Assembly (NCBI GenBank): GCA_965214295.1
Contig: OZ243944.1
Location: 1,653,395-1,717,394 of the forward strand
DNA: 64,000 nt
DNA from: Chloroflexota bacterium
GTDB taxonomy: Bacteria > Chloroflexota > UBA11872 > UBA12225 > JAJDUF01
Direction: 5' to 3'
The number at the start of each line of letters is the position of its first letter. Position 1 is the stretch's first letter. The translations under genes were made by a program, and so were the position numbers. This document shows positions 6,027 through 59,543 of this stretch, in pieces. The notes beneath the pieces were generated by a model, which had not been told where the DNA came from, did not search any database, and saw only the letters and a list, made by a program, of their open reading frames with translations.

Positions 6027-6372
6027 GGGCGGCGGTCGGTCGTGGGGGGTGCGCGGGAAAGGTGCTGGAGGGAGAAGCCCGTACACGCGGTGGAGCAAGA
6101 CCGCGGGCGGGGCGGTACCTGGATGGCAGGATGCACTTGGTGACCTGAAGCAGGATGGTCCGGATGGAAGGATGGGCAGGATGGATTCCCGCTTTCGCGG
6201 GAATGACGGGACGGGGGGCGGGAATGACGATACAGTGGAGCGAGATAGCGGGAATGACGGTCGAGACGATGGGAGTGCGGGTAGGTCAGGGTGCGGGGAT
6301 TGGCAGGGACGCGGGGCAAGCCCCCCTGGCACAACCGGTACACGCCGGCCGGCGAGGGCGCGGTGGCGATAG

Positions 6373-6840
6373 GGGTGGCACTCAGACAGTGCTGACCCGG
6401 CGCCCTGGCCGTAGGGGCCAGGGGTACGTCAGCACCCGGTGCCGGCGAGGCGGCACTCAGGCGGCCATGCCCGGCTGCACGTTGCGCGGTGGGAAATCGG
6501 CCGTGACCCGGCACCCAAGGGTGCCGGGCGCCGGACCAGTGGTAGTCCACCGCCCGCGGCGCGGCGGGGGGTCGCTCATGACCCGGTGCGCGCAAGGCGG
6601 CACTCAGACGGTCGTGGCCTGGCACTCCCGCCGTGATGGCGAGGGGGCGGCCCTGACCCGGTGCCCTCGGGGTGGCACTCAGACAGTCCTGACCCGGCGC
6701 CCTGGCCGTGGGGGCCAGGGGTACGTCAGGACCCGGTGCCCTCGGGGCGGCACTCAGGCGGCCATGCCTCGCCGCGCGCGGTGCGGCGAGGGGTCGTTGA
6801 TGACCCGGTGCCCTCGGCTGGGTGGCTCCGCCACCGCTGT
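6373..6840. repeat. intergenic tandem/direct repeat block: two ~98-bp direct repeats (6373-6470 and 6676-6773, ~95% identical) embedded in ~8 copies of a shorter GACCCGGTGCC..GGCACTCAG hairpin unit
   Basis: direct reading of sequence; internal perfect hairpin CCCTGGCCgtaggGGCCAGGG; no coding potential (only low-complexity P/A/R/G ORFs on both strands). Confidence 0.7.
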
Positions 6841-7250
6841 TGACTAGCATGATGGTGCGAGTGCGTCCCTGCCGGGCGGTGCCCGGTGCTCCAGGAAGGG
6901 CTTGCAGCTGCCAATCCCCGTCAGGGGGACATATCAACGGGGGATAGGGGAAAGACAACGGGGGTTGTCAGAAGCAGGATTTTCAGGATGAGGGGATGAG
7001 CAGGATGAGGGTGGGTACATGATTGGGCCCCTGTGGCCCCCTCATAGGGGTAGGTATTGGTTGTCGTGGGGCACCCACACGCTTTGCGCCCAGAGCCGGC
7101 CCTGGACTTGATCCAGGGGGAGGGGCACGGCATGCCGTGCCCCTCCAAGCACCCATTGCGCCGGTTTACCTCCCCTTGTCAGGTCAGGGGGAGGGGGTGG
7201 GATTGCCGCGATGGGGGCGGCGGGTGAATCTTCCCGTAGCCAGTGCCGGG

Positions 7251-7646
7251 TCAACACCCGCAGTTGATCTCGGTGCCGTCCTGCGCCTTCTCGCCGGCGG
7301 TGGCGTAGCCGTCTCGCTTCCACCAGTCTAGCCCGCCGATCAGCTCACGCACTCGAAAGCCCGGCGTCAGCAGCTTCAGTGCCGTTTTTGTCGAGGCATT
7401 GCAGCCGATGCCGTCGCAGTAGCAGACGTAGAGCTTCGATTTGTCGAGCGACTCGGTGGAATTGAAGCAAATCTCCTTGTGGGGAAGGTTGAGTGCTCCT
7501 GGGATATGCTCTTGGGCATAGGCATTGGCAGAGCGTCCATCAACGATGATGATGGGTTCGTTCTTGCCCAAAGCCTCGTAGAGGTCCCACGAATCCATTT
7601 CGTAAGCGAGCTTGCGCTGGTAGTGGTTCAGCTGCTCGATGCTCAC
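7251..7646 (-). CDS. rhodanese-domain sulfurtransferase with Cys-rich C-terminal tail
   Basis: rhodanese fold sequence (IIIVDGRSANAYAQEHIPGALNLP, CYCDGIGC active-site loop); gene body is low-GC relative to flanks. Confidence 0.7.
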   Translation of the reverse strand: MSIEQLNHYQRKLAYEMDSWDLYEALGKNEPIIIVDGRSANAYAQEHIPGALNLPHKEICFNSTESLDKSKLYVCYCDGIGCNASTKTALKLLTPGFRVRELIGGLDWWKRDGYATAGEKAQDGTEINCGC

Positions 7647-7907
7647 GGTGTTTTTCCTTCATCAACGTTTTGAGTTGTCGAAACCGCGGCCGGCACCGCG
7701 CTGCACACTCGCGTCTGCCGGTCCAGAAAGGGTGTGCGGGGGAGGCTATCAAGCGATCTTGCTGCGATTCTACCGTAACGGAGGTGCTGTGGCGGCGTCC
7801 CTGCCAGCAAAGGGTACAATGGCTGCCCGCATAGAACCGTCGGTTCAAGCGTGCTCGATTGGCGGCCAGGCGCGAGGCCAGTGCATCGCTGGCAAGGAAG
7901 GATGCTC

Positions 7908-8855: not shown

Positions 8856-8869
8856 GCGCCAGCGCGACG

Positions 8870-9922: not shown

Positions 9923-9925
9923 GCT

Positions 9926-10882: not shown

Positions 10883-11037
10883 CAGCAGGAAACTCCCAGC
10901 CGCGGCGGTCCGCACACCCAGCCGGATTCCCGGGAAATCGGGGATGACGGTGGGATGTCAACAGCGCCTAGTCGTTTCCCACGACGCAGCGGATACCGTC
11001 GCGGTTAGCGTGCGACGCCGCGGGCCTGAGACACGCT

Positions 11038-11469: not shown

Positions 11470-11490
11470 GCGGCCAGAGCAGCCGTTGAC

Positions 11491-12768: not shown

Positions 12769-12954
12769 TCCGGGTCGCTCTTTATGTGCTCGGTCCGGCT
12801 AGAGACCGAGTTCGCAGTAGTTTGAACCGGCGACAGCGGTAGCCTCGCAGCACACGATACCGGATAAATATGAACATGCAGCTATTAATCGGCAAGGGCC
12901 AACTGCGGGTTCCGGCGGTAATGACGAACGAACGGTGCGGCGGAAGACTGCGAC

Positions 12955-19264: not shown

Positions 19265-19440
19265 CAGGGCCTTTCCATTGCCACCACATTGTCACCACTT
19301 CAACAGGCTCAGTGCCGGCTCTGAGCGGAGCGCAGGGTCGCTCCGCCGCGGCTGAGATTCTTCGCTCCGCTCAGAATGGCAGTGGAAAGGCCGCTCAGAA
19401 GGACCGGTTTGGCGGCGACTTTGGAAAGGCCCTCCGTTTC
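19265..19440. repeat. ~165-bp structured intergenic repeat element, copy A (copy B at 60830..60995, ~90% identical)
   Basis: direct comparison of the two loci; contains 13-bp inverted repeat GAGCGGAGCGCAG...CTGCGCTCCGCTC and CTCAGtgccggctCTGAG hairpin. Confidence 0.6.
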
Positions 19441-19700
19441 CCGGTCATTTCCGCGGAGACGGGAATCTATGCTTGTCGCTGGATACCGGGCCCCCTATGC
19501 TCCCCCGCTGTGCAGGGGGACGTGGATTCCCCGCGGGTGCGGGAATGACGGGCCGCAGCGGCCGGCCGCAGCGCAGACGGAGCGTAGGCCAGGCTACCGA
19601 ACCGATCGGGCCGAACAGGCTATGATAAGCAGGGTAAGGCTGGCGCTCGGCCGGTGCCGGCACGAGGACGTCATAGCCGCACTGAGGCGAGGAGGAAACT

Positions 19701-20861: not shown

Positions 20862-21320
20862 AATCGTCCTGCTCCCACTGGGGAGACTTTTTTTAGCCAC
20901 AGAGAACACAGAGTAAGGGTGTCCCCCGGCGGAGCGGGACACTGGCCCCGCTAGGGTCCCTCCGCTTCGCAGGGGGACATAGATTCCCACGTGCGCGGGA
21001 ATGACGAGTGGCGAGGTGCGCCTTTCAGGAGTTGTGTCGTAGCGTGCGGCGAGGATCGCAACGATGGTCGCACGTTGATTATCGCGGGCTGTTGTGCGAT
21101 AATCTCGGCACAGGCAAATACGCTGGCCTGAATCAGCAAGCTGGGAGCCAGCACTGTAGCAATTACCACAGATGAACCGGCGGCATCTTTGTCGGTGAAA
21201 CCCAGTCCCTTGAGCGGCCCGGTGACAGGAAGGGCAGACCGGCATGGACCAAGAAGTTGTCGGTCATATGCCGCAGTGAGATTGTGTGGCCGGCAGTTGC
21301 CTAAGACGAGGCTTGGGAAT

Positions 21321-22169: not shown

Positions 22170-22467
22170 CGCCGCTCCACCTGAGCATGGCGCCACACGA
22201 CCACGAGTAGTCTACGCTGAACCTTGGCGTTGGCAAATCAAGCAGTGGCAGAACGAGAACAAACTGTTCAAGCTACGTATGGCCATCGCCAGGCGACTGG
22301 GGCGTACCAATCTTCATATCCCGGAACCTGTAGAGCCTCCTGATCCAGGCGAGCGCAAGGACCGGATACAGCCGGCAGGTGGCGAGTAACGCGAGGGCAG
22401 CAGCCGGCGGGCTGCAATCCGCTACACTCGACCTACCGACAAGACCAAGCGCGTTGGAGGTCAGTGC

Positions 22468-32474: not shown

Positions 32475-32657
32475 CAGGTGGTCGGTGGTTCCGGCCGTCA
32501 TTGCGGCGGAAGCTGCAATCCAGTTCATGCGGAGGGCGCAGCGCGCATTTCCCCTTGCGGCCCGATCCAGGCTAAACTCACTGCGGCGCTAGTGCTCCGT
32601 TCCTCCTGCTCATCACAAGTAGCGGGGCACTGAGGCAGCCGGTCCGAGGAGGAGACG

Positions 32658-36304: not shown

Positions 36305-36406
36305 CCCCTTGGTAGCCGGAGACGACACAGGCTATCATCTGGGGTATTGGGAAGAGGTTCGCCTATCTGGACGCACTCCGCCTCGCGCGGTGGAGAGGCA
36401 AGCGAG

Positions 36407-39261: not shown

Positions 39262-39408
39262 CTCGCCCTCCTCCAACCCCGGCCCGTCATTCCCTCGTTC
39301 GCGGGAATCTACCGTGCAGCCGCGTGCCCCGGTTGCCCTGGATTCCCGCTTGCGCGAGAGTGACGGATGAGGGGCCGGGAACGACGGGGCTGCTTGTAGT
39401 CATCCATG

Positions 39409-45384: not shown

Positions 45385-46785
45385 ATGTTATTGACGATTA
45401 CCACAACCTACCAACCTGCCACCGACCTGGGCTTTCTTCTGGCCAAGAATCCGGCCCGGTGTCAATCGTTCTCCTTGTCCTTCGGTCAGGCCCATGTCTT
45501 TTATCCGGTAGCGCACGACCGGGTCTGCACGGCGGCACTGCTCGTTGACCTCGATCCGATCCGTCTCGTGCGGCGGCGACGAAGCCGTCAGAGCCAGGAC
45601 CGCACGCTCGGCCAGTACGTGAACGACCGGCCGTATGTGGCCTCATCTTTTCTGAGCGTGGCGTTGGCCCGCGTGTACAAGTCGGCATTGGGCGGCCAGA
45701 GTAAAGAGCGACCGGCACTTGCGGCTACGGCTATTCCGCTCGCGGTGCAGATCACTGCGGTCCAATGTCGCGATGGTGAGCGCATGCTGCGGGCGCTCTT
45801 CGAGCCGCTCGGCTACAACGTCAGCGCCGAGCGCCAGCCGCTCGATGTAGCCTTTCCGCAGTGGGGAGAGAGCACGTATTGGTCACTCGCTCTCGATGCC
45901 ACCCACCGCCTGCATGACCTCCTCACACACCTGTATGTCTTGCTGCCGGTACTGGACGACGACAAGCATTACTGGGTTGGGAGGGACGAGCTGGAGAAGC
46001 TGCTGGCAAAAGGAGCGGGCTGGCTCTCGACTCACCCGGAACGTGACTTGATCGTTGACCGCTACTTGCGGTACCGGCGCCTGCTCACCCGCGAGGCCCT
46101 CGCCAGACTGGTGGTCGACGACGACATCAATCCCGATGCTACCGAGGAAGCACAGGCCCGCGAAGAGGCGGTGTTGGAGGACAGAATCAGCCTCAGTGAG
46201 CAGCGCATGATGGCCGTGCTGGCTGTGCTCAGGGGAGCCGGCGCTACACGGGTGATCGACCTGGGCTGTGGGGAGGGGAAGTTTCTCCAGGTGCTACTCA
46301 AGAATACGGACTATGAGCAAATCACCGGTATGGATGTGTCCTCCCGGGCCCTAGCGTTAGCAGCGAGACGTTTGCGGCTCGACCGGTTACCGGCGAGACA
46401 ACGCGCGCGCATCGAGCTTTTTCAGGGAGCGCTCACCTACCGGGATCAACGACTCACCGGTTACGATGCCGCCTGTGCGCTGGAGGTTATCGAGCACATC
46501 GAACCATCGCGGCTGGGCGCTTTCGAGCGGGTGCTCTTCGAGTTTACACGGCCGTCAACCGTAGTGATTACCACGCCGAACACAGAGTACAACGTGCGAT
46601 TCGAGGACCTTGCCGCCGGTCGGTTCCGCCACCGCGATCATCGCTTCGAGTGGACCCGCGCGGAGTTCTCACGCTGGGCGCAGCGGGTGGCAGATCGCTC
46701 CGGCTATGCGTTTCGGTTGCTGCCTATCGGTCCAGTTGACCCGGCCGTAGGTCCTCCGACCCAGATGGCGGTATTCTCACGATGA
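45385..46785 (+). CDS. hen1: bacterial Hen1 RNA 3'-terminal 2'-O-methyltransferase
   Basis: N-terminal Pnkp-interacting region and C-terminal SAM MTase (VIDLGCGEGKFL); overlaps pnkp start by 4 bp (ATGA). Confidence 0.8.
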   Translation: MLLTITTTYQPATDLGFLLAKNPARCQSFSLSFGQAHVFYPVAHDRVCTAALLVDLDPIRLVRRRRSRQSQDRTLGQYVNDRPYVASSFLSVALARVYKSALGGQSKERPALAATAIPLAVQITAVQCRDGERMLRALFEPLGYNVSAERQPLDVAFPQWGESTYWSLALDATHRLHDLLTHLYVLLPVLDDDKHYWVGRDELEKLLAKGAGWLSTHPERDLIVDRYLRYRRLLTREALARLVVDDDINPDATEEAQAREEAVLEDRISLSEQRMMAVLAVLRGAGATRVIDLGCGEGKFLQVLLKNTDYEQITGMDVSSRALALAARRLRLDRLPARQRARIELFQGALTYRDQRLTGYDAACALEVIEHIEPSRLGAFERVLFEFTRPSTVVITTPNTEYNVRFEDLAAGRFRHRDHRFEWTRAEFSRWAQRVADRSGYAFRLLPIGPVDPAVGPPTQMAVFSR

Positions 46786-49337
46786 ATATCACTGTCCCGG
46801 CACTGTCGTTGGTGGTCTTGATCGGCCCTTCGGGCAGCGGCAAGTCTACGTTTGCCAGCAAGCATTTCAAGCCCACGGAAGTGCTGTCATCCGACTATTG
46901 CCGCGGCCTCGTGTCCGATGACGAAAACGATCAAGCTGCGACGAAAGATGCCTTCGACGTACTCCACTTCATCGCTCGCAAACGCCTCGCGGCTGGCCGG
47001 CTCACCGTGGTAGATGCTACCAACGTTCAGGCGGAGGCACGCAAGCCGCTGGTGGCGCTGGCACGAGAAGCCCACGTGCTTCCTGTGGCCCTCGTCTTCA
47101 ACCTGCCGGCCAAGCTGTGCCAGGAGCGCAACCGCGACCGGCCCAACCGCGACTTCGGTCCCCACGTGGTTCGGCAGCACAGTCAGCAGCTGAGACGCTC
47201 GCTCCGCGGCCTGCGGCGGGAGGGTTTTCGACACACCGCTATCCTGAGCACGCCGGATATGGTCGCCGCCGCCCGTATCGTGCGGCAGCCTTTGTGGGTC
47301 GACCGGCGGCAGGAGCATGGTCCGTTCGACATCATTGGCGATGTCCACGGCTGCTTCGATGAGCTTGTCGCGTTGCTGGAGCAGCTGGGCTATGACATCG
47401 GCGGCCCGACTGGTCGGCCCACGGTGCGCCACCCGGACGGTAGGCGTGCGGTGTTTGTTGGCGATCTCGTGGATCGAGGCCCTAACTCGCCTGGGGTGCT
47501 CCGGTTGGTCATGGCCATGGTGGCCGACGCGGCAGCGCTGTGTGTGCCGGGCAATCACGACATCAAGCTCATGCGAAAACTCAAGGGGCGCGATGTTCGG
47601 ATCACGCATGGTCTCGCGGAAACGCTGACGCAGCTGGCCGCAGAGCCGGATGACTTCCGACGGAGCGTGATGGAGTTTCTCGACGGGCTGGTGAGCCATT
47701 ACGTGCTCGACGATGGGCGGTTGGTCGTTGCTCATGCTGGCCTGAAGGAGGAGCTGCAAGGGCGCGCCTCGGGCCAGGTACGGGAGTTTGCGCTCTATGG
47801 CGAAACCACTGGCGAGACCGATGAGTTCGGATTGCCGGTTCGTCACAACTGGGCTGACGACTACCGAGGATCGGCCACTGTCGTCTACGGACACACACCG
47901 GTACCAGCCGCAGAGTGGCGCAACCGGACTGTCTGTATTGACACCGGTTGCGTGTTTGGTGGGAAGCTGACGGCTTTACGCTATCCGGAAAAGGAGCTGG
48001 TGCATGTCCAGGCGCGCCGCACCTACTATGACCCGGTGCGTCCTCTACTACCACCAAGCCAAGAGGCGCCGGCTGTATCGCGCCGTCCCCACGATGACAT
48101 ACTGGATATCAACGATGTCTTGGGTAAGCGTGTCATTACCACACGCATTCACCGCAACATCACTATTCGCGAGGAGAATGCTTTGGCGGCTCTCGAGGTC
48201 ATGAGCCGATTTGCGGTGGATCCGCGGTGGCTTATCTATCTACCACCGACTATGGCTCCTCCGGATACCTGCAAAGATGGCGAGTACCTTGAGCATCCAC
48301 GCGACGCCTTCGCTTACTTCCGAGGGCAGGGAGTGGCTCAGGTTATCTGCGAGGAAAAGCACATGGGCTCACGGGCTATCGTCGTTCTCTGCCGCGATCA
48401 GGAGGCGGCCCAGCGCCGATTCCAGGCGGACAATGGCCGGCTCGGTCTCGTCTATACGCGCACGGGACGCCCCTTCTTTTCCGATACCAAGATGGAGGGC
48501 ACGCTGCTCGCGCGTATGTCTGCCGCCTTGGCGCAGGTGGACTTCTGGGATCGCTTTGAGACGGACTGGCTCTGCCTCGATGCCGAGCTGCTGCCGTGGT
48601 CGGCGAAGGCTCAGGGGTTGCTACAGGATCAGTACGCAGCTACGGCGGCCGCAGCCAGCACTACGCTCGATGCCGCCGTCTCCTTGCTGAAGAAGGCCGC
48701 GGGCCGCGAAGAAGAGCGCGCGGCGTTGCTCACTCGCTACCGGAAGCGCCAGGAAATGGCGAGCCGGTTTCGCGCGGCCTATCGTCGCTACTGCTGGCCG
48801 GTCAGGAGTGTGGCCGACCTGAAGCTGGCGCCCTTTCACCTGCTGGCGACGGAAGGGCGGACATACACGGACAAGGACCACACCTGGCACATGGAGATGG
48901 TCGCGGCCCTCTGCCAGGCTGATGGAGCGATCTTCGCTGCTACTCCCTACAAAACTGTCGACCTGACCGACCCTGACAGCGAGACAAGAGGGATCAGCTG
49001 GTGGAAAGAGCTGACTGCCGCTGGCGGCGAGGGGATCGTTGTGAAGCCGCTCCGGTGGATCGTGAGAGGGAGTCGAGGCCTCGTTCAGCCGGCCATGAAG
49101 TGCCGGGGACGCGAGTACTTGCGATTGATCTATGGCCCGGAGTATACGGCTCCTGAGCACCTGGAGCGGCTCCGGTCCCGCAAGGTCTCCGTGAAGCGCT
49201 CGTTAGCCCTGCGAGAGTTTGCGCTGGGTGTCGAGGCGCTCCATCGGTTTACGGAGGAAGAGCCGCTGTATCGGGTGCATGAATGCATCTTCGGCGTGCT
49301 GGCCCTGGAGAGCGAGCCGGTCGACCCTAGGCTCTAG
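46782..49337 (+). CDS. pnkp: polynucleotide kinase-phosphatase (kinase / metallophosphoesterase / ligase-like domains)
   Basis: P-loop GPSGSGKST; calcineurin-type GDVHGC..GDLVDRGP..GNHD; C-terminal adenylyltransferase-like EEKHMGSR. Confidence 0.85.
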   Translation: MNITVPALSLVVLIGPSGSGKSTFASKHFKPTEVLSSDYCRGLVSDDENDQAATKDAFDVLHFIARKRLAAGRLTVVDATNVQAEARKPLVALAREAHVLPVALVFNLPAKLCQERNRDRPNRDFGPHVVRQHSQQLRRSLRGLRREGFRHTAILSTPDMVAAARIVRQPLWVDRRQEHGPFDIIGDVHGCFDELVALLEQLGYDIGGPTGRPTVRHPDGRRAVFVGDLVDRGPNSPGVLRLVMAMVADAAALCVPGNHDIKLMRKLKGRDVRITHGLAETLTQLAAEPDDFRRSVMEFLDGLVSHYVLDDGRLVVAHAGLKEELQGRASGQVREFALYGETTGETDEFGLPVRHNWADDYRGSATVVYGHTPVPAAEWRNRTVCIDTGCVFGGKLTALRYPEKELVHVQARRTYYDPVRPLLPPSQEAPAVSRRPHDDILDINDVLGKRVITTRIHRNITIREENALAALEVMSRFAVDPRWLIYLPPTMAPPDTCKDGEYLEHPRDAFAYFRGQGVAQVICEEKHMGSRAIVVLCRDQEAAQRRFQADNGRLGLVYTRTGRPFFSDTKMEGTLLARMSAALAQVDFWDRFETDWLCLDAELLPWSAKAQGLLQDQYAATAAAASTTLDAAVSLLKKAAGREEERAALLTRYRKRQEMASRFRAAYRRYCWPVRSVADLKLAPFHLLATEGRTYTDKDHTWHMEMVAALCQADGAIFAATPYKTVDLTDPDSETRGISWWKELTAAGGEGIVVKPLRWIVRGSRGLVQPAMKCRGREYLRLIYGPEYTAPEHLERLRSRKVSVKRSLALREFALGVEALHRFTEEEPLYRVHECIFGVLALESEPVDPRL

Positions 49338-49454
49338 GTTGTGCTGACGTTTGAGCTGGAAGGCAGTGCCACCAATCCCTTTCCGTCATCCCGGTGGAAG
49401 CCGGAATCCATGCCCCCCTGCGAAGCGGGGAACATAGGGGGCCGGGGGGTAGTC

Positions 49455-50594
49455 TTAACCACGGACCGTGAAGCGGTCTTCCAGCTCGTTCTCGATGGCT
49501 ACCAGCCCGGTGTAAGCAAGCTCGGCGTTGGACGCCATCGCGGCTCCGAACCAGCCCTGCCGGCGCATCGCCAGACCCTTCTCGACCGCGCCACGACGGA
49601 CCGATTCCCAGAGGCTGTCGGCAAAGAAGTCCACGATCTCCCCGGTGAAGTTTCCGGCAGCGTCTACCGAAACTCCAAGCGCCGACACAATCGGTTGGCA
49701 GTACACAAAGCGCACTTCACTGTTGATGGGGACGGGCGTAATCGGCATCACGTGGCTGCCGCGTGCGTCGCCGGTCACGTAGGGACAGATCGCCCACGGC
49801 AGGAGCACTTCCTCCGGTGCCGGAAAGATGCCCTGGGTGCGTATAATCGCCACCGGGTCATCCTTCCCGACGTAGGTCCCGGCGATGTTGTGCAGCCGAC
49901 TCGTACTGGCCGCGAGTAGCTGCTGGTCGGGATGGGCACGCGACCAAGCCGACTGAATGGCGAAACGCGCTTCATCGCGCAAGAGGGCCGCCAGCCGATA
50001 GTAGTCCTCGGGTGCATGGAGGGTAATCTCCCGATCTCCCTCCGTATAGTCCATATCCATCAGGCAAAAGCTGAACCCTTGGCTCATCTCCGGCTTGAGG
50101 AGCAGGCCCCCGCAGTACATCGGGTCGGCAAGGGGTAAGAAGAACGGCAAGTTGAAAGCGCCGGGCGCGCACTTATCCGCATAGAAGAAGAGCACCGTTT
50201 CGGCCGGCCGGACCTTGTTGTCCTTGACCGGATTATGCTCGAACTCCAGCTCGGCGACGGCCGGGCCGGCGCCCCGGATGTTGCCGGAGGGAGCATCCAC
50301 CAACAGGTCTTGCCCGGCGCCATAGTCACCGCGCTCCTGAGCAGCCGCCGTCCCGTTCTGGAAAGCGTCCCAGGCCAGCTGGTGTAGCTCCGTATTATCG
50401 GGGCCGACGGTATGGCTGCACGTGATCGCGATATCGTCGCCGGTGTGGGTGATCATCATGTCAATAAGCAGGCCGCGCTCTTGGGCGGCGGCAAATGTCT
50501 CCCGCACCGCCGCCAGCACCGCCTGCGAGGGGCGGGTGTGGCCCCCCGGCGACCCGATGTCCGCCTTGAAGATCGAGAGCGTCAATTTCATCGT
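49455..50594 (-). CDS. fbp: fructose-1,6-bisphosphate aldolase/phosphatase (class V FBPase)
   Basis: MKLTLSIFKADIGS N-terminus characteristic of bifunctional FBP aldolase/phosphatase; RBS GGGGGGA. Confidence 0.85.
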   Translation of the reverse strand, partial: TMKLTLSIFKADIGSPGGHTRPSQAVLAAVRETFAAAQERGLLIDMMITHTGDDIAITCSHTVGPDNTELHQLAWDAFQNGTAAAQERGDYGAGQDLLVDAPSGNIRGAGPAVAELEFEHNPVKDNKVRPAETVLFFYADKCAPGAFNLPFFLPLADPMYCGGLLLKPEMSQGFSFCLMDMDYTEGDREITLHAPEDYYRLAALLRDEARFAIQSAWSRAHPDQQLLAASTSRLHNIAGTYVGKDDPVAIIRTQGIFPAPEEVLLPWAICPYVTGDARGSHVMPITPVPINSEVRFVYCQPIVSALGVSVDAAGNFTGEIVDFFADSLWESVRRGAVEKGLAMRRQGWFGAAMASNAELAYTGLVAIENELEDRFTVRG

Positions 50595-50785
50595 CCCCCC
50601 TTGCTCCTGAGCATGAAAATACCTGCGAGCATCCCTCACCAACCCAGTCTCAGGACAGTCTCGTCAGGTTACTGCGACTGTAGCATTCCCCCACGGCGTT
50701 GCCAAGTGCATCGGCCCAGTGGCACGGAACCGAGTGCGTGGTTACTCCTGCCCTTGAACGATTGAGCGGGCCTGAAGCATACGAG

Positions 50786-51832
50786 CTAGCTACCCGGTGG
50801 CGCCGGAACGGGCGTCTCGGAGTAGGGCATGAGCGTCGCAAGCCCGGCCGCACCGGTCATGATCTCGGCGATCTCCCGCTGGGCCTCCGGGGTGAGCGCC
50901 ACGTCGAGCGCCCCGACGTTCTCGTCAAGCTCGGCTGGCCGCCGCGTCCCGGAGAGCGCCACCGCCACCTGCTCGTTGCTGAGGACCCAGGCCAACGCCA
51001 GGCGCGGCAAGGTAGTCCCCAGCCGGGCAGCGATCCGCTTGAGCTGGTCAACAACCCGCAGATTAGCCCCAAAGTTGTCGGCGCTGAACAGCGTTTGACC
51101 AAAGATCGGCCGCTCCCGGCGCCAGTCCCCCTCCTCGAAGGTCGTCTCCGCATCGAATGTCCCGGTCAGTAGCCCATGGGCCAGTGGCCCGTAGGCCATA
51201 ATGCTCACGCCAAGCTCTTGGGCCGTAGGCATCATCTCGTGCTCCCAGCGCCGGTCGAACAGGTTATAGCCCACTTGGTTCGCCACCAGTGGCGCCAGCC
51301 CACACGCCGCGTGGAGCTGGCGCGCCTCATAGTTCGACACCCCAACGTAGCGGGTCTTCCCGGCCGCCAGCAGGTCATGCAGCGCCCGCGCCGTTTCCTC
51401 GAAAGCGGTCTCGGGATCCGGCCAATGGATGAGGTAGAGGTCCACGTAGTCGGTGCCTAACGACTGAAGACTGGCCTCGCAGTCCGCAATCACCGAAGCG
51501 TAGCGGGCGTCGCGGCCAGGATTGAAGCGCGGCAGACCCGGCCGGGTCGGCTTGTCGTCCATCTGCCCTGCGCGCGTGGGCAGCGCGCCCTTGGTGACGA
51601 CAATGGCCTCCTGGCGCCGGGCACCCAACCCTCTCCCGAGCAATTCCTCCGAGGCCCCGACACCGTAGCCGCGGGCCGTATCGAACAAAGTGATGCCCAG
51701 ATCGAGCGCCCGGTGAATGGCGGCGATGACCTCCGTGGTCTCGAAAGACCCATAGCCGCCGCCCATTTCCCAGCAACCGAACCCAATGACCGATACTTCC
51801 AGGTCGGAGGTCCCCATGCGCCGATATTCCAT
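50786..51832 (-). CDS. aldo/keto reductase
   Basis: MEYRRMGTSDLEVSVIGFGCWEMGG; RBS GGGAGG. Confidence 0.8.
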   Translation of the reverse strand: MEYRRMGTSDLEVSVIGFGCWEMGGGYGSFETTEVIAAIHRALDLGITLFDTARGYGVGASEELLGRGLGARRQEAIVVTKGALPTRAGQMDDKPTRPGLPRFNPGRDARYASVIADCEASLQSLGTDYVDLYLIHWPDPETAFEETARALHDLLAAGKTRYVGVSNYEARQLHAACGLAPLVANQVGYNLFDRRWEHEMMPTAQELGVSIMAYGPLAHGLLTGTFDAETTFEEGDWRRERPIFGQTLFSADNFGANLRVVDQLKRIAARLGTTLPRLALAWVLSNEQVAVALSGTRRPAELDENVGALDVALTPEAQREIAEIMTGAAGLATLMPYSETPVPAPPGS

Positions 51833-52077
51833 CGTAGTGCCTCCCTTCCGATGAATATAACCCGGACCCGCCATTCCCACGCACGCAGGAATCCACCCTC
51901 CCCGCCGCTGGATTGCAGCCTGCGCCGCAATGACGGTGCTGGCCTGTGCCTCGTCACTGCGGCGGAAGCCGCAGTCTAGGGCTTCACGTTCCGCCGGCCG
52001 TCATTTTCATCGCTTGTGGTGCAGAGTGCAAGCTACAAGAGTGCTTCCGGCTTGTGCCGGCATGACGAGCACCCGGG

Positions 52078-53310
52078 CTAGGCCCATAGCTCTGCTCGCT
52101 GCCACTGAGATACCATGCTCTCCAGGAGGGTCGCGGCGGCCACGCCGTCCGCGACGCGGTGGTCGAACGTGAGGCTGAGATGCACCGTCGGCCGCACGGT
52201 CAACGCCCCGTCCTCGGCCACCGCCGGCCGCGGCGCAATGTTGCCCACGCCCAGAATGGCGCTCTGCGGCGGGTTGATGATGGGCGTGAAAGCGTCAATG
52301 TGCAAGGCGCCGAGATTCGTCAGCGTCGCGGTACCGCCTTCCATCTCCCGGGGCTGTAGCCGCCCCTGCCGTGCCCGGTCGGTCAGTCCGGTCAGCTCGC
52401 GGGCCAGATCGAGCGCCGGACGGTGGGCCGCATCACGCAGCACCGGCACGACAAGGCCGTCCTCCACGGCGACGGCAACGCCGATATGTACCTCCCCCAG
52501 CAGCACGACCTCCTCACCCTCGATCACAGCGTTGAGCGCCGGGTGCTCTAGCAACGCCGCGGCCAGCGACTTTGCCAAGAGCACGTCATAGGAGACATGC
52601 ACCCCCTCGCCGGCTGCTCTGGCTACCAGTAGCTCTCTGGCTTGCACCAGTGGGCGGGCATCCACCTCGCGGGTCAAGGTCAGCTGCGCGGTGGACGTGA
52701 GGCTATGCTGCATCCGCCGGGCAATCAAGCCGCGCATCCCCGTGAGCGGGACGCGGCGCAGCACGCGCGGCCCGCCGGCCTCACTCCCTGGCCCCCGCTC
52801 CACTTGTGGAGCAGGGGAGTCCGTTCCCGCTGGCTGCCGACTCGCCGCGGCCGCCTGCACGTCCGCCTCGGTGATGCGGCCGCCAGGCCCGCTGCCCGTG
52901 ACACTGGTGAGATCAATGCCAAGCTCGCGGGCGCGGCGCCGGGCGACCGGGGTGGCGCGCACGCGGCCGCGGCTGGCGCGTGCCGGTGGCGGCTTTGCCG
53001 GCGTGCGTGCCGGTGTGGCGGCAGGAGCGGCCGCCGGCGCGGCTGTCGGTGATCCGGCGGCGGGAGGGGACTCACCCGGGGCGAGGACGTGGCCCAGTAT
53101 CCCTTCGACCTGCACGCGCCCGCCTACCGGCACGACCTGATGGAGCATACCGGCCGCCGGGGCCGGGATTTCGACGGTGGTCTTTTCCGTGGTCAGCTCC
53201 AGCACGGGCTGGTCTTCCACGACTGACGCCCCGTCGGCCACCAGCCAGCGCGTGACCTCACCCTCAATGGTGTACATGCCGAGGTTAGGCATAGCGATTG
53301 CTACGGCCAT
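52078..53310 (-). CDS. 2-oxoacid dehydrogenase complex E2 (dihydrolipoamide acyltransferase)
   Basis: lipoyl domain (LELTTEKTT lipoyl-Lys context), Ala/Pro linker, catalytic domain DHRVADG. Confidence 0.85.
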
Positions 53311-53352
53311 GATTTACCTCCGGCCCGGCTCCGTCATTCCCGCACCGGCTCC

Positions 53353-54438
53353 CTACCCCGTACCGAGCATCTCGTGTACCGCATCCACGACCCGTTGCGG
53401 CGACGGCGTATAGATCGATTCCAGGGCCGCGCTATAGGGTACCGGCGTGTCCGCGCTGTTGATGGTCTTGATGGGCGCATCGAGAAAGTCGAAGCCGGCA
53501 TCGGCGACGCGGGCGGCGATGTCGCGTCCCAGCGAGCAGGACGGTGTGTCCTCGTCCACGACAACCAAGCGTTGCGTCTTCTCCACGGATTCGACGATGG
53601 TCTCTTCGTCCAGCGGCGACAGACTAAGTACGTCGATGACCTCGGCCTCCAGGCCTACGGCGACCAGCGCCGCGGCCGCCTCCAGGCACACGTAGGTCAT
53701 GCGGCCGATCCCGCAGAGGGTGAGGTCGCTTCCCCGCCGCACGATCTCGGCCTTCCCGAACGGCAGCGTATAGGCTTCCTCCGGTACCGGCGTGCGCGCA
53801 TTCAGCCCCAGATAGCGGTGTTCGAGTACGATCACGGGGTTGTTGTCACGGATGGCGGCGATCATCAGACCCTTGGCGTTGTAGGCCGTGGTCGGTGCGA
53901 CGCATTTCAGGCCGGGCACGTGTGCCAGGACCGAGTAGAGCGTTTGGGAGTGCGTGGCCGCCGCGCCGCCGCCGGCCGTCTGGCTGCTCGGTGGGCGCGC
54001 GCCATACGACATCCGCACCGTCATAGGAATCTGTACCTGGCCGCCCATCATGTAGTGCATCTTCGCCGCTTGATTGATGAGCTGGTCGTAACAGCAGCCG
54101 ATCAGATCAATGAATCCCAGGTCCACTATCGGGCGCAGGCCGCTCATGGCGGCCCCGACCGCCGCCCCGACAAACCCCATCTCCGCAATCGGCGTGTCCA
54201 AGACGCGCCCGGAGCCGAACTCGGTAACTAGCCCCTTGGTTGACCGGGTGGGGCCACCCCAGGCGTCCTTGAAGCCTAGATGCTCCCGCCCGGCCGCTCC
54301 CGCCACGTCCTCGCCGATGACCACGATGCTCGGATCGCGGCGCATCTCCTGCCGGATCGCTCGGTTCAGTGCCTCCGGGAACGTCAAGACCTCGGCGGCC
54401 GTCTCGGTAGCAGCCGGCGCTACTGTTGTCGTGACCAT
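53353..54438 (-). CDS. 2-oxoacid dehydrogenase E1 component beta subunit
   Basis: transketolase-like pyrimidine-binding and C-terminal domains. Confidence 0.85.
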   Translation of the reverse strand: MVTTTVAPAATETAAEVLTFPEALNRAIRQEMRRDPSIVVIGEDVAGAAGREHLGFKDAWGGPTRSTKGLVTEFGSGRVLDTPIAEMGFVGAAVGAAMSGLRPIVDLGFIDLIGCCYDQLINQAAKMHYMMGGQVQIPMTVRMSYGARPPSSQTAGGGAAATHSQTLYSVLAHVPGLKCVAPTTAYNAKGLMIAAIRDNNPVIVLEHRYLGLNARTPVPEEAYTLPFGKAEIVRRGSDLTLCGIGRMTYVCLEAAAALVAVGLEAEVIDVLSLSPLDEETIVESVEKTQRLVVVDEDTPSCSLGRDIAARVADAGFDFLDAPIKTINSADTPVPYSAALESIYTPSPQRVVDAVHEMLGTG

Positions 54439-54491
54439 GACCCTTCCTTTCCGGCCCCCTCCCTCTACAATGAGCTGGAGCAGATGAGGTA

Positions 54492-55475
54492 CTAACCCGC
54501 TACGATCTCCGTCGTTAGCTCCGCTGCCGCCGGGAACGGCGCTGCTTCAGCGGCGGCAACGGCCTCGTCCACGGCCGCTGCCGTGTGGGCATCTATTTCC
54601 GCCAGATCGGCGGCGGTCAGCGTCCCGGCTGCGACGACCTCCTGACGGAAGCGAGCGATGCAATCCCGTGCGCGGGCGGCCTCGATCTCTTCGGCCAGCC
54701 GGTAGGCCGTCCCGTCGTCTCCGGCCGAGTGTCCGTAGTAACGGTAGGTCCGCGCCTCGATCAAGGATGGCCCGCCGCCGGAGCGGGCACGCTCGACCGC
54801 CCGTGCCGTCGCCTCGTACACGGCAAACACATCCTGGCCGTCCACCTTCTCGCCGGGCAGGCCGTAGCCGGCGGCACGTTTCCAGACCTCGCCAGCGGTG
54901 CTGTACTCGACCGGCGTGCTCTGCGCGTAGCCGTTGTTCTCGCAGACGAACACGCAGGGCACGTTCCAGACCGCAGCCAGGTTGATCGCCTCGTGGCAGG
55001 CACCGATATTCGCGCCGCCATCGCCGAAGAAGGTCACGGCCACCTGACCGGTCCGGCGCACCTTGGCGCTCAAGGCGGCGCCCACCGCGTGGGGAATACC
55101 GGCCCCGACGATCGGGTTCACGCCGAGCATGCCCACGCGCACGTCCGTGATGTGCATGGAGCCGCCCTTGCCGCGGTTCGCGCCGCTGGCCTTGCCGTAC
55201 AGCTCGGCCATCATCGGTGCCACGTCCATCCCTTTGGCGATGCAATGCCCGTGACCACGGTGCGTGGAGGCAATCCAGTCGTCCGGTCGCAGGGCAGTAC
55301 AGACTCCTACCGCCACGGCTTCCTCGCCGACGTAGTAGTGGGCAGCGCCGAACGCAATGCCGCCATCCACCAGCGCCTTAACGCGGTCCTCGAAGGCCCG
55401 AATCAGCACCATGCGCTCGTACATGGTCAGCAGTATCGCACGCGAGAGCGCTGCTGCGGTCGTACTGCTTGTCAT
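54492..55475 (-). CDS. 2-oxoacid dehydrogenase E1 component alpha subunit (ThDP)
   Basis: GDGG..N ThDP motif (FFGDGGANIG...CENNGYA); RBS GAGGAGG. Confidence 0.85.
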   Translation of the reverse strand: MTSSTTAAALSRAILLTMYERMVLIRAFEDRVKALVDGGIAFGAAHYYVGEEAVAVGVCTALRPDDWIASTHRGHGHCIAKGMDVAPMMAELYGKASGANRGKGGSMHITDVRVGMLGVNPIVGAGIPHAVGAALSAKVRRTGQVAVTFFGDGGANIGACHEAINLAAVWNVPCVFVCENNGYAQSTPVEYSTAGEVWKRAAGYGLPGEKVDGQDVFAVYEATARAVERARSGGGPSLIEARTYRYYGHSAGDDGTAYRLAEEIEAARARDCIARFRQEVVAAGTLTAADLAEIDAHTAAAVDEAVAAAEAAPFPAAAELTTEIVAG

Positions 55476-55734
55476 CGAGCGGCCTCCTCGCTGGTGCCGG
55501 CCGACATGGCCATCTTCCGGTGCCCGGCCGCGTCCCCCGTCATTCTTGCGCCAGCGGGAATCCATGTCCCCGTGCGGAGTGGATGCCGCGCCGGAACCGG
55601 CGCATCTTCCAGGCTAAGGTAGCGTTCCCGACAAGCGCATGCAAGCCGGAGGCCAGCTGCAGTCGGGGCAATTGCATCGGAAAGAGCGCCTGATCTGTGG
55701 ACAACCACCAGAGATACCACTCCGAGCTACTGGC

Positions 55735-55775
55735 CACTGGTCACTGGTCACTGGTCACTGGTCACTGGTCACTGG
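55735..55775. repeat. heptanucleotide tandem repeat (CACTGGT) x ~5.9 in divergent promoter region
   Basis: seen directly; ~75 bp upstream of FAD-oxidoreductase start, ~260 bp upstream of E1alpha start. Confidence 0.85.
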
Positions 55776-55849
55776 ACGGTAGAGGCTGGCACAGTAGTCC
55801 CGCGAACGCGCGGCGCGGCGGCCGAGCACATAACCACAGGGAGAGGCAA

Positions 55850-57298
55850 ATGTCTGAGAATGGAGCCGTGGAATACGTTGTCGAGCCACAGAAACGGGTG
55901 CCCGTCGCCTACGACGTGGATGTGGCCGTGGTAGGCGCCGGCATTGGCGGGTTGTTCGCGGCGCTTGCGGCGGGCAAGCAAGGCGCCAAGACGCTGCTGA
56001 TTGATCGCCTGGCCGCGCTCGGCGGCAACATCGGTCCGGCCATGATCGTTGCCGGCGGTTTGTATAACGAAGCCGACGGCACTCTGGTCGGTGGGCTGTC
56101 CGGCATCCCCAAAATGTTCATTGACACGATAGAGAAGCGCCGCACGGCCAACAACTACGCGGACGAGACGAGCCTAGTGTCGTATCTGGGCGCCAAGCTC
56201 AGTGAAGAGTGGGGCATCGAGCTGTTGCTGACCGTATGGGCCGGCGATCCGATCATGGAAGACAACCGCGTGACCGGCCTGTTTGTGGAGGGCAAGTCGG
56301 GGCGGGTGGCAGTCAAGGCCAAGGTCGTGATAGATGCCACGGCCGACGTTGACATCGCCCGCCGCGCCGGTGCGCCGGTCATCATGGCCTCGCCACCCGA
56401 TCCGGCACACGGGCCGCTGGTCAGAGAGCGGCGGGGCGGCGCGCCGTACCGCGTTTGGAACGATACGGCCCTGTTCTATATCGTCGCCGGCGTGGACTTT
56501 GCCGCCTACGACGCTTTCGCGGCGACCCGCGTGCCACTCAGCGACGCGGATCGAGAGTGGGTACGTGGCCGTAACCCCGGCCGCTTTCCGCAGCCGATGC
56601 TGCCGCTCCTGCGCCAGGCTTGGGAGGACGGGTCGTACCGACACATGCGCGACCTGGAGCCGACGGTGCATACCGAGAGCGCGGCGATATTGCAGTTCGA
56701 TGGACACGTCGGCTCTTCGCGGCTCAACGTGCGCGGCGAAATCCGCCGGGAGGACATGAAGCAGCACTCCAAGATCGAGACCGCCGCGCGCGTCCACGCC
56801 CAAGAGACCTTGCACTTCTATCGGGAGCACGTGCCTGGCTTCCAGCGAGCCTACATGCTGTTCATGGTCCCGTACTTCGGCGCCCGCGGCGGGCCGTGCA
56901 TTGACGGAGAGCGCACCCTCACCGCCATGGAAGCCTACGAGGGCAAGAAGTTCCAGGACGTGATGTACCGGAATATCCATGAAGGGCAAGCGATGCACGG
57001 TGGAGAAAAATCGGGCCACGACGCCCCGTATCGCATGATCCAGCCGAAAGGGGTGGAGGGTCTGCTCGTGACTGGCCGTGGCGCCGCCTACGTCCGCCGC
57101 GGTCACGACCCGACCGGGATGCGGGCGCGACCGAGCATCATGGCCCTGGGAGAGGCCACCGGCATTGCCGCCGCTCTCTCCGCAAAGCTGGGGGTCACGC
57201 CCAAGGCGCTCGACGTGAAGACGCTGCAACGGGAGTTGCTCCGCCAGGGCGCCTACTTGGGTGACGCGGTGCGCCTCGCCGAGCTGGGACTACACTAA
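55850..57298 (+). CDS. FAD-dependent oxidoreductase
   Basis: VAVVGAGIGGLFAAL dinucleotide-binding motif; RBS GGGAGAGG. Confidence 0.75.
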   Translation: MSENGAVEYVVEPQKRVPVAYDVDVAVVGAGIGGLFAALAAGKQGAKTLLIDRLAALGGNIGPAMIVAGGLYNEADGTLVGGLSGIPKMFIDTIEKRRTANNYADETSLVSYLGAKLSEEWGIELLLTVWAGDPIMEDNRVTGLFVEGKSGRVAVKAKVVIDATADVDIARRAGAPVIMASPPDPAHGPLVRERRGGAPYRVWNDTALFYIVAGVDFAAYDAFAATRVPLSDADREWVRGRNPGRFPQPMLPLLRQAWEDGSYRHMRDLEPTVHTESAAILQFDGHVGSSRLNVRGEIRREDMKQHSKIETAARVHAQETLHFYREHVPGFQRAYMLFMVPYFGARGGPCIDGERTLTAMEAYEGKKFQDVMYRNIHEGQAMHGGEKSGHDAPYRMIQPKGVEGLLVTGRGAAYVRRGHDPTGMRARPSIMALGEATGIAAALSAKLGVTPKALDVKTLQRELLRQGAYLGDAVRLAELGLH

Positions 57299-57481
57299 GC
57301 GCCGGGTGCCCTGGGTCGCACCTAGGCACACGTCATGGCGGCGGAAGCCGCCATCCAGGGCCATTCCTGGCCCCCATACTCCCCCCGCTCCGCAGGGGGA
57401 CAGCGTATTCCCTCCCCTGTGCGTCAGCACGGGGGGAGGGCAAGGGTGGGGGCCACAGCTGCAACTGGCTAGGAGGACACC

Positions 57482-58231
57482 ATGACCGCTATTGACTTTG
57501 CCAGCTCGTATATGACCTGGTTTGGCCCTGGAAATCATGCGCGGATCCAGCTCGATGCGGCCTGCACCATCGTTGACGAGCAAGCGGGGGCGGAGGAGAT
57601 CTTCTACCTGATTGCGCCTTGTCGCTCCGAGCGTTGCTACATGGATGATCCGCTGTTCACGATGCCCAACTATGAGTTCTGCGGTATCTGGTCCCAGGAT
57701 GAATTCCTCCTTATTCGGACGCATTGGGTGAGCGAACGGGACAATCGCCAATACGGTGTCATCCGTGAGCACTGGGATGCCGTGCAGCTGGACATTCGCC
57801 GCTTTCCGCAGGCGGAGCAGCTCCCGGATCGAGCCGCTATCGTCACGGCGACGCTCGCCAACCGCCCCCTCATTGCCCGCACCGAGCTGCACGATGAGGC
57901 GGGCCGGCAGCGGGCGGTGCTGGAGTATCCGGTGCGGACGATGAATGTGCTGCCGGGGCCGGCGGCGCGCGTGCCCCGCAATCCACCACAGTTCCAGGTG
58001 GACACCGGGCCGCTGATCGTCCCGGACTTCGCATCGACCGCGGACCATCAGATCGAGCGCTTCGACATGGGATACCTTGTCTACCAGGAGTTCGATCAGG
58101 CAGAGTTCATCTTGCGCCGGCCGGTGCCGGTCCCGTCGGCAGAGCAGCCGGCGACCGAGACAACGGACTACTCGGCCGTCCGAATAATCCCGGCCCGCAA
58201 CACCATTCTCGCGCCGCCGGCCCCGGCGTGA
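57482..58231 (+). CDS. hypothetical protein (249 aa)
   Basis: strong RBS AGGAGG 6 nt upstream; no recognisable domain. Confidence 0.6.
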   Translation: MTAIDFASSYMTWFGPGNHARIQLDAACTIVDEQAGAEEIFYLIAPCRSERCYMDDPLFTMPNYEFCGIWSQDEFLLIRTHWVSERDNRQYGVIREHWDAVQLDIRRFPQAEQLPDRAAIVTATLANRPLIARTELHDEAGRQRAVLEYPVRTMNVLPGPAARVPRNPPQFQVDTGPLIVPDFASTADHQIERFDMGYLVYQEFDQAEFILRRPVPVPSAEQPATETTDYSAVRIIPARNTILAPPAPA

Positions 58232-58297
58232 TGGGGGCGAGCCGTTGGCCGAAATTGGTATCCTGCCTGGCGCTGCCGAGCTTGTGTACGAAAGGCG

Positions 58298-59452
58298 ATG
58301 AACATGGGTATCGAGCGTGCCACCTATCAGGACACGTATCGCGCCGGGGTCATTGGACACACCGGCCGCGGGAACTACGGTCACGGCTTGGACGTGGCCT
58401 TTGTCGGCTTACCGAACGTGCGGCTCGTTGCCGTGGCCGATGCCGACGACGCGGGGCGCGCGGAGGCGGTGGAGCGCACGGGCGCCGAGCGCGCCTATGC
58501 CGACTACCGCGACATGCTCGCGCAAGAGAGCCTCGATCTGGTCGCCATTGGGCCGCGTTGGCTGGACCAGCACGAGGCGATGACCATTGCCGCTGCCGAG
58601 GCCGGCGTGAAAGCCATCTATGCCGAAAAGCCGATGGCGCCGTCGCTCGCGGCGGCAGATCGTATGCTGTCGGCCTGTGACCGGCATGGCGTGAAGATTG
58701 CCTACGCCCACCAGAATCGCGCTTACCCCGGACCGGCGCTCGTGCAGGAGTATCTCGCCCGCGGCGAGCTAGGTCGGTTGCGCGTCATCCGCGCTTTCGG
58801 GAAGCAAGACCGTCGTGGCGGGGGGATGGACCTGCTCGTGCTCGGCACCCACCTGCTCGACCTGATGCGCCTTTTCGCCGGCGATGCTCGCTGGTGTCAC
58901 GGTCACGTCACTCGGAATGGGCGCGACGCAACCGTCGCAGACATCGAGGTGGCCCAAGAAGAAGGGGGGCTGATCGCCGGCGACGATGTGATCGCGCAGT
59001 ATGGCTTCGATCATGGCGTCCTGGGCACCTACGAGTGCGGGCGGGCGGGAGACGGCGGCGGCTCCCCTTACTTCCGGGTAGAGGTCTGCGGCACTGATGG
59101 CATGCTGACCTTCTGGAGCAGCCCCGATTCGCCGATCTACCTGTTCCCCGGCCCGTTTGCGCCACCGGACCGGCTCTCCGAGTGGCAGCTAGTGCAGCCG
59201 GGGCCGCTGCCGCCGGCGCTGGGGCCGGAGAGCTTGCGCGGCGGCATGCACACGGCGAACCAGCTCATCGTGTGCGACTTGCTGGCGGCGGTCGAGGCAG
59301 ACCGCGCACCGGCCATGTCGAGCGGGCACGACACCCGGGCTGCGCTGGAGATGATTCTCGCCGTCTACGAATCGCACCGTCAGGGTACGCGGGTCGCGCT
59401 CCCGCTGGCCGACCGCCAGCACCCCCTCGCCCGCTGGCAGCGCGAAGCATAA
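58298..59452 (+). CDS. Gfo/Idh/MocA family oxidoreductase
   Basis: GVIGHTGRGNYG Rossmann motif, EKP motif. Confidence 0.8.
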   Translation: MNMGIERATYQDTYRAGVIGHTGRGNYGHGLDVAFVGLPNVRLVAVADADDAGRAEAVERTGAERAYADYRDMLAQESLDLVAIGPRWLDQHEAMTIAAAEAGVKAIYAEKPMAPSLAAADRMLSACDRHGVKIAYAHQNRAYPGPALVQEYLARGELGRLRVIRAFGKQDRRGGGMDLLVLGTHLLDLMRLFAGDARWCHGHVTRNGRDATVADIEVAQEEGGLIAGDDVIAQYGFDHGVLGTYECGRAGDGGGSPYFRVEVCGTDGMLTFWSSPDSPIYLFPGPFAPPDRLSEWQLVQPGPLPPALGPESLRGGMHTANQLIVCDLLAAVEADRAPAMSSGHDTRAALEMILAVYESHRQGTRVALPLADRQHPLARWQREA

Positions 59453-59543
59453 CTACGCCTCCTGCTCCGGTATTGCACCTCACCCCCGGCCCCCTCTCGA
59501 CCACGGTCGCGGGAATGACGGGGAGAGGCGGGGGAGTGGAGTG

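Follow-up and report, generated by a model that had tools for sequence, protein, structure and literature searches.

The 64-kb stretch of chromosome analysed here (the window; positions 1,653,395 to 1,717,394 of contig OZ243944.1, Chloroflexota bacterium assembly GCA_965214295.1) holds a genuine, abundant and oriented family of intergenic hairpin repeats. The best explanation, which we regard as probable, is that these repeats belong to the family described as the Neisseria Transformation Sequence (NTS) and, more broadly, as Ssn-related motifs (SRMs), and that their hairpins are read as single-stranded DNA (ssDNA) by a small GIY-YIG nuclease of the Ssn family. The element family itself is already known; what is new is its host, a member of the Chloroflexota, and one stem variant that escapes the published motif. 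The assignment extends the Ssn/SRM system to an uncultured soil Chloroflexota lineage.

An oriented family of intergenic hairpin repeats

The window is ordinary chromosomal DNA with a G+C content of 64% and a non-coding fraction of 11.8%. Fifteen copies of the repeat were aligned to build a covariance model, R1, with which every position of the window was scored. The model matches 16 copies at 24-47 bits, where about 0.07 are expected by chance, and the runner-up scores, none above 16 bits, come from the reverse strands of the same 16 sites; the element is therefore oriented. The copy at 4748-4781, which had been left out of the training alignment, was still found (24.3 bits, E 2.7e-4). The simple pattern GTCAT-N16-ATCYA likewise has 10 matches in the window, where dinucleotide-preserving shuffles predict 0.07. 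An initial annotation, made from the sequence alone, had proposed such a family from eleven full and two half copies, all of which we find where it had placed them; the copies at 4748(+), 10919(-), 19440(+), 39335(-) and 51949(+) were absent from its list. The second motif that it had seen beside some of the repeats, CCCCGCTnnGCAGGGGGAC, is confirmed as well: it has 5 matches, where 0.8 would be expected.

Each of the 16 window copies is either intergenic or, under longest-ORF start calls, overlaps an open reading frame (ORF) only at its furthest upstream potential start codon. When related genomes are included, 110 of the 124 copies lie outside crude gene calls that cover 82% of the sequence. 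The suggestion that most copies sit just downstream of convergent or tandem gene ends proved too narrow, since divergent promoter regions carry them too: the 88 classifiable copies from the window and its relatives comprise 27 in convergent, 42 in tandem and 19 in divergent settings. In the same combined set, neither orientation to the nearest gene end is significantly favoured overall (40 sense, 41 antisense), with a weak sense excess within 40 nt of a stop codon (11 sense, 4 antisense). A replichore or strand bias was considered and rejected; local runs of one orientation exist, yet orientation alternates along the related chromosome OY759972.1.

Stem types and conserved flanks

The repeat unit is about 28 nt long and consists of a conserved 5' CGTCA, an 8-bp stem, a 4-nt loop and a conserved 3' TCCA, with the consensus CGTCAT-T[C/G]C[C/G]GC-loop-GC[C/G]G[C/G]AAT-CCA. 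Most copies fold as ssDNA into one hairpin with this 8-bp stem and 4-nt loop, at -3 to -10 kcal/mol. The initial annotation had read the compensatory stem changes as covariation under selection on secondary structure. Pairing is indeed preserved, with 92.5% of stem cells paired in the window copies (79% in shuffles) and both sides changed at 4 of the 8 pairs; for the 108 copies from relatives the corresponding figures are 98.2% and 86%. The covariation is not free, however. Among those 108 copies only stem positions 4 and 6 vary, by exchange of C-G and G-C, and the other six pairs and the CGTCA and TCCA flanks are nearly invariant. The stems thus fall into three discrete types, which we call A or CC (ATTCCCGC), B or GG (ATTGCGGC) and CG (ATTCCGGC).

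Outside the stem, the G, C and A of CGTCA and the 3' T-C are invariant in 15 window copies, and the closing A-T pair and the C directly after the palindrome are nearly so; the pattern is the same in the 108 copies from relatives. The full 5' flank CGTCAT is present in 15 of the 16 window copies. Each of the three stem alleles is found beside an Ssn gene somewhere, as described below, which points to a protein that would recognise sequence plus shape, rather than to selection on structure alone.

Correspondence to the Neisseria Transformation Sequence

The NTS was defined as CGTCATTCCCGCGMAVGCGGGAATCYRG and generalised to SRMs across bacteria, mainly in Neisseria and other Pseudomonadati (Chenal et al., Nat Commun 2025; PMC11893778). 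Its partner, SsnA, is a 94-aa single-domain GIY-YIG protein that binds the hairpin in its ssDNA form only and cleaves a few nucleotides upstream of it; mutagenesis in N. meningitidis showed that three nucleotides lying upstream of the palindrome are critical for cleavage and the C after the palindrome for binding (PMC11893778). The positions conserved in the window and in its relatives, in the 5' flank and at the C after the palindrome, are those found critical in that work. One window copy, at 6181-6208(-), departs from the NTS consensus by 1 mismatch and three further copies by at most 3, where none is expected. The likeness extends to the oriented CGTCAT, the 8-bp stem, the 4-nt loop and the ATCC(A/T) end, and to high copy number and intergenic clustering; in addition, the model built from the window copies finds repeats that bracket Ssn genes.

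The system seen here also differs from the published one. Its host belongs to an uncultured Chloroflexota lineage that the main text of the earlier paper does not mention (PMC11893778). Three stem alleles occur together in one genome, and type B, the commonest in the relatives (whose loci were fetched by the type B pattern), escapes the published SRM pattern. Copies furthermore join with other lineage-specific hairpins in mosaic units capable of tandem amplification.

Part of the family also corresponds to dRS3, a repeat known, like the Neisseria intergenic mosaic elements (NIMEs), from Neisseria. The exact dRS3 pattern (ATTCCC-N8-GGGAAT) is matched by 4 window copies, against 0 expected; the other 12 fall outside it, and dRS3 therefore covers only a subset of the family. 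Like NIMEs, the window repeats stand in variable intergenic mosaics, whereas most of their stems (GCGG, CCGG and others) are not dRS3, their companion repeats are different ones, and they show no link to a Neisseria prophage.

Association with genes for small GIY-YIG nucleases

A tblastn search of plasmids yielded Ssn-like genes: in both Azospirillum and Shinella, inverted pairs of the repeat bracket a GIY-YIG gene of 94-97 aa, and the Shinella protein carries Y6, Y17 and E64, the residues mutated in N. meningitidis SsnA. The R1 model, built from window copies only, also recognises, at 28-46 bits, the repeats immediately beside Ssn-like GIY-YIG genes at 11 unrelated loci (L005, L010, L043, L094, L142, L198, L215, L229, L239, L240 and L242). 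The usual layout is SRM(+)-gene-SRM(-), and the flanked genes encode about 94-100 aa, with PF01541 assigned where precomputed annotation exists (P0161, P0190, P0198). For P0198, P0190 and P0161, look-ups yielded good SRM-ssn-SRM loci, all from organisms other than this lineage. Searches of NCBIfam and the PDB for Ssn returned no specific family, only weak GIY-YIG similarity.

The three stem types are distributed over these loci as follows: type A flanks Ssn genes in L240, L010 and L094, type CG in L239 and L242, and type B in L198, L142 and L229. In L215, from a Dehalococcoidia metagenome-assembled genome (MAG), type B copies enclose a pseudo-ssn that two in-frame stops interrupt. When genomes were scanned with the type B pattern, most hits came from Chloroflexota/Dehalococcoidia MAGs and some from Pseudomonadota, Elusimicrobiota and others; among them, an alphaproteobacterial MAG has Ssn genes enclosed by type B copies, and in a Robiginitomaculum MAG one such copy adjoins an Ssn gene. 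The published search motif thus misses a common stem variant that still brackets Ssn genes.

Truncated copies offer a further parallel. They are nearly always the 5' half (GTCATTCCCGC), sometimes in tandem (window 6219-6258, 53333 and 59510; L242 3130-3185 and 3790-3850), and lone 3' halves are nearly absent. Tandem 5' halves precede the full copy at window 6182 and also stand beside the Ssn gene of L242, an unrelated high-G+C contig. Since the same pattern recurs there, it may be a footprint of the mechanism.

A number of observations weigh against the assignment to the Ssn/SRM system. The 64-kb window yielded no Ssn homologue by a GIY-YIG regular expression, by tblastn with three Ssn proteins or by a hidden Markov model built from about 120 Ssn proteins, and neither an intact nor a decayed Ssn gene is present in roughly 350 kb of sequence from related MAGs, eight or nine in number. 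The published degenerate SRM pattern, which cannot match type B stems, recovers only 3 of the 16 window copies (0.72 expected) and 17 of the 108 copies from relatives. In N. meningitidis, changing the palindrome sequence with the hairpin kept abolished SsnA activity (PMC11893778), which makes a single enzyme unlikely for all three stem types seen here. The sole known role of the system, modulation of natural transformation, was shown in Neisseria (PMC11893778). Some orthologous copies, moreover, are decaying (the copy at 55539 as found in L236, compared with the window, and the remnant at 12902-12926), and many copies may be inert relics. We nevertheless infer that an Ssn is encoded elsewhere in this Chloroflexota genome and acts on the copies, because of their family membership and because, of genomes with over 200 SRMs, 81% encode Ssn (PMC11893778).

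Gain, loss and mosaic arrangement in related genomes

IspH and synteny assign the window to an uncultured Chloroflexota lineage. Its relatives, with about 88-90% nucleotide identity, include GCA_022824545.1 and complete MAG chromosomes of 4.3-4.4 Mb; the complete chromosomes at about 90% identity are OZ244848.1, OZ242293.1, OZ250185.1, OZ241866.1 and OY759972.1. The window carries 16 copies in 64 kb and the relatives 108 in 347 kb, the latter figure being affected by the choice of most of their loci for holding at least one copy. The relatives' density, about one copy per 3-4 kb, would correspond to some thousand copies in each genome, provided that the sampled regions are typical. The repeats also account for false ORF starts and for small 'hypothetical proteins' in the annotation of such genomes.

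Orthologous sites differ in whether they carry a copy (51866-51982, 55535, 57328 and 12902-12926 in the window), and L001 carries SRM blocks at sites where the window has none. Such differences indicate rapid gain and loss between related genomes, and the description of the repeats as a mobile hairpin, one of the options offered in the initial annotation, fits them. The SRMs are often joined to lineage-specific hairpins, such as one that we call hairpin-2 and those of the GGGAGGGGGTTTGGGGGTAGG type, in mosaic units. A metagenome scan with the hairpin-2 pattern returned 120 contigs, none of which is related to this lineage or carries an SRM or an Ssn gene. One mosaic unit is amplified in tandem in OY759972.1 at about 290.3 kb (L154, 2338-2732), where six type B SRMs follow one another at an exact spacing of 72 bp. 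We considered a CRISPR-like array (clustered regularly interspaced short palindromic repeats) at this site and ruled it out, as the 38-nt intervening segments are near-identical; identical 'spacers' indicate tandem duplication of a composite unit. L236 shows a fairly clean insertion of 76 nt precisely in front of a stop codon, with a possible duplication of 7-10 nt. As evidence of target-site duplication, this single insertion is too ambiguous to use.

Since copies differ site by site among chromosomes that are about 90% identical, the lineage offers a good natural system for studying how such hairpins spread. It is suited to asking whether Ssn acts solely as a restriction-like ssDNA nuclease or also drives the mobility of the hairpins.

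Proposed mechanism and alternative explanations

On the Ssn/SRM assignment, the top strand of each repeat would fold into its hairpin when the DNA becomes single-stranded, during replication, repair, DNA uptake or transcription. A single-domain GIY-YIG endonuclease of about 95 aa, of the Ssn family (cd10448), would then read the shape and sequence of the hairpin, binding through the stem and the C directly after it and cutting a few nucleotides 5' of CGTCAT. For the cell, this might serve to modulate recombination or the fate of incoming ssDNA, as in Neisseria, or it might reflect simple selfish spread.

In one alternative, the repeats are non-autonomous elements resembling miniature inverted-repeat transposable elements, SRM-ssn-SRM is a transposon like an insertion sequence (IS), and Ssn moves the hairpins through an ssDNA intermediate with no host function. 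We consider this possible but unlikely. The SRM(+)-ssn-SRM(-) layout does resemble terminal inverted repeats, an idea raised in the Discussion of the original paper (PMC11893778), and the presence or absence of SRM blocks at orthologous sites, the 76-nt insertion in L236 with its possible duplication, the sixfold amplification of the composite unit in L154 and the pseudo-ssn copies in L215 and L198 could all be taken as signs of transposition. However, Ssn has been shown only to cleave, and strand transfer or ligation activity is not known (PMC11893778). The indels are mostly composite blocks with other hairpins rather than single clean units, the lone candidate target duplication is ambiguous and another indel has none, and deletion or recombination between repeats would yield the same polymorphism. 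A stronger version, in which the hairpins are actively spreading non-autonomous ssDNA mobile elements driven in trans by Ssn, each stem allele has its own Ssn paralogue, and the tandem 5' halves are footprints of aborted cleavage and rejoining, is a speculative proposal to which we give little weight. If true, it would make SRM-ssn-SRM a new prokaryotic transposon class built on a GIY-YIG enzyme; movement of the hairpins by Ssn itself would be the only route to something more novel.

The remaining alternatives leave Ssn aside. An RNA-level role, as transcription terminators or as stabilisers of mRNA 3' ends in the style of repetitive extragenic palindromic (REP) elements, with the protein association incidental, is suggested by G+C-rich stems, some of them stable at -9 to -10 kcal/mol, and by several copies that lie 22-47 nt past a stop codon in sense, together with the sense excess within 40 nt noted above. 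As in Rho-independent terminators, then, the hairpins are G+C-rich and often stand shortly past a stop codon. They differ in lacking a T/U run after any copy, as inspection of the flanks of every copy showed, and a terminator scan of 49000-61500, the sole stretch scanned, called none of its 7 copies. The copies occur in both orientations and in divergent promoter regions (19 of 88), and a simple RNA hairpin explains neither the strong conservation of the single-stranded flanks CGTCA and TCCA nor why the two strands score so differently. SsnA, moreover, does not bind the RNA form (PMC11893778). The terminator role entertained in the initial annotation thus finds no footing here, and we judge RNA-level function as a whole to be improbable. 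A search of the window with Rfam at the gathering threshold and a tRNA scan gave no matches. The term REP-like in that annotation is apt insofar as the repeats are short, numerous and palindromic and form mosaics, with intergenic imperfect palindromes and inverted doublets that recall bacterial interspersed mosaic elements (BIMEs). It fails on the conserved flank, which is CGTCAT. Classical REP elements spread or maintained by a REP-associated tyrosine transposase (RAYT, of the IS200/IS605 family) are reportedly marked at the base of the palindrome by the tetranucleotide GTAG/CTAC. The REP/BIME-RAYT systems of Enterobacteria and Pseudomonas share with the repeats studied here intergenic palindromes that act as ssDNA hairpins and a cognate gene flanked by its own repeats, but their enzyme has an HUH/Y1 fold rather than a GIY-YIG one. 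No Y1 transposase is present among the window genes by Pfam, and wherever the repeat brackets a gene, that gene encodes a GIY-YIG protein, the small nuclease Ssn (PMC11893778), and not the RAYT partner that the initial annotation had envisaged; spread and maintenance of the repeats by a RAYT encoded elsewhere is, in our view, very improbable. We attach just as little credence to the idea that the repeats are attachment or target sites for site-specific recombinases. Four exact dRS3 copies speak for it, dRS3 being a known target of the IS110-type integrase of Neisseria filamentous prophages (PMC11893778), as do NTS-type copies on many contigs of the viral collection searched. No integrase, IS110-type gene or prophage, however, adjoins any window copy, and use as a target would not account for about one copy per 4 kb.

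Features of the window

The repeats and related elements of the window are listed in Table 1. Its genes include sugar-acid and oxidoreductase genes, IspH, a 2-oxoacid dehydrogenase operon and a Hen1-Pnkp pair, and Pfam reveals among them no transposase or nuclease that could be linked to the repeats.

Table 1. Positions of SRM copies, partial copies and composite units in the window.
Position	Strand	Feature	Context and remarks
4748..4781	+	SRM copy with variant 5' flank CCATG for CGTCAT and exact dRS3 core ATTCCCGCGCAAGTGGGAAT	Divergent intergenic; R1 24.3 bits
6178..6211	-	SRM type A; CGTCATTCCCGCGAAAGCGGGAATCCAT equals Neisseria NTS consensus with 1 mismatch (6181-6208)	R1 46.6 bits; ssDNA hairpin -9 kcal/mol, z -4.2
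6219..6258	-	Two tandem 5' half copies GTCATTCCCGC (6219-6228, 6249-6258)	Just upstream of full copy 6178-6211; same layout beside L242 Ssn gene
10919..10952	-	SRM, divergent ATCCCCGA...CCGGGAAT	8 nt upstream of epimerase start; R1 28.6 bits
12902..12926	-	Decayed SRM remnant CGTCATTACCGCCGGAACCCGCAGT	28 nt past ispH stop; intact SRM at orthologous spot in L001 and L002
18807..18840	+	SRM type B-like, ATTACGGCG GAAG CCGCAAT	R1 42.6 bits
19287..19434	-	149-bp repeat, copy 1, holding SRM-like motif GCCATTCTGAGCGGAGCGAAGAATCT (19351(-))	Separate family
19440..19553		Inverted pair: SRM(+) 19440-19473, hairpin-2 19503-21, SRM(-) 19519-19553	114-bp palindromic composite; divergent region
20921..21009	-	Composite: SRM type A 20976-21009(-), then hairpin-2 at 20960-20978 and 20921-20939	
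32493..32526	+	SRM type B	22 nt past GFO_IDH gene stop
39282..39368		Convergent SRM pair 39282-39315(+), 39335-39368(-)	
49381..49430	+	SRM with CCGG/CCGG stem and adjoining hairpin-2 49412-49430	Between convergent Pnkp and FBPase genes
51866..51982		Three-SRM cluster: 51866(+), 51905(-) type B, 51949(+) type B variant	Whole block missing at orthologous site of L236
53333..53343	+	5' half copy GTCATTCCCGC	
55535..55568	+	SRM within block of about 84 bp	Block in window and L236 (copy decayed there), not in L224
57328..57401	+	SRM with ATGGCGGCG stem and reverse hairpin-2 57383-57401	Block missing in L236; other hairpins instead in L224
59510..59519	-	5' half copy in loop of GAGAGGGGGCCGGGGGTGAGG-type hairpin	Different mosaics at site in L183 and L224
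60839..60985	-	149-bp repeat, copy 2, with SRM-like motif at 60901-60934	

The two copies of the 149-bp repeat are 91% identical, lie in divergent promoter regions and carry GTCATTCYGAGCGG motifs and a long hairpin; no further copy was found in any other fetched locus, and Rfam gave no match. A tandem repeat of AGCTATCAGCCGTC (2.2 units, 4699-4729) lies just upstream of the SRM at 4748. The stretch at 6027-7250 is a repeat-rich, apparently non-coding 1.2 kb with 75-bp tandem repeats at 6567-6757; its orthologue in L001 is annotated as a 352-aa ORF without a Pfam match and looks like translated DNA repeats. At 55729-55775, the heptanucleotide ACTGGTC is repeated 6.7 times at the 5' end of an FAD-oxidoreductase ORF. 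This tract, which could be variable in length, is missing from the orthologous sites in L236 and L224.

The DUF3179 gene at 19701-20861(+) contains a single in-frame TGA (20139-20141) in the context W-TGA-P-L-C. It is kept in both orthologues, L001 2825-3985(-) and L002 3025-4185(-), where the gene is called as two ORFs, and this conservation makes the codon a candidate selenocysteine, in a UxxC redox motif, rather than the mark of a pseudogene. Downstream, the interval 20862-22413 spans about 1.5 kb in the window, whereas in L001 and L002 about 280 bp separate the DUF3179 gene from that for PfkB; the two main ORFs within it, 21189-21596 and 21621-22169, have no Pfam match.

Two further gene pairs deserve mention. 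The Hen1 methyltransferase and Pnkp (kinase-phosphatase-ligase) genes at 45385-49337 form a bacterial RNA repair pair, with an SRM/hairpin-2 composite directly after it. At 36347-38063, amid metabolic genes, a gene for a helix-turn-helix and peptidase M78 (ImmA/IrrE-like) protein overlaps a DUF4411 gene, in a layout that resembles a toxin-antitoxin or defence-associated pair.

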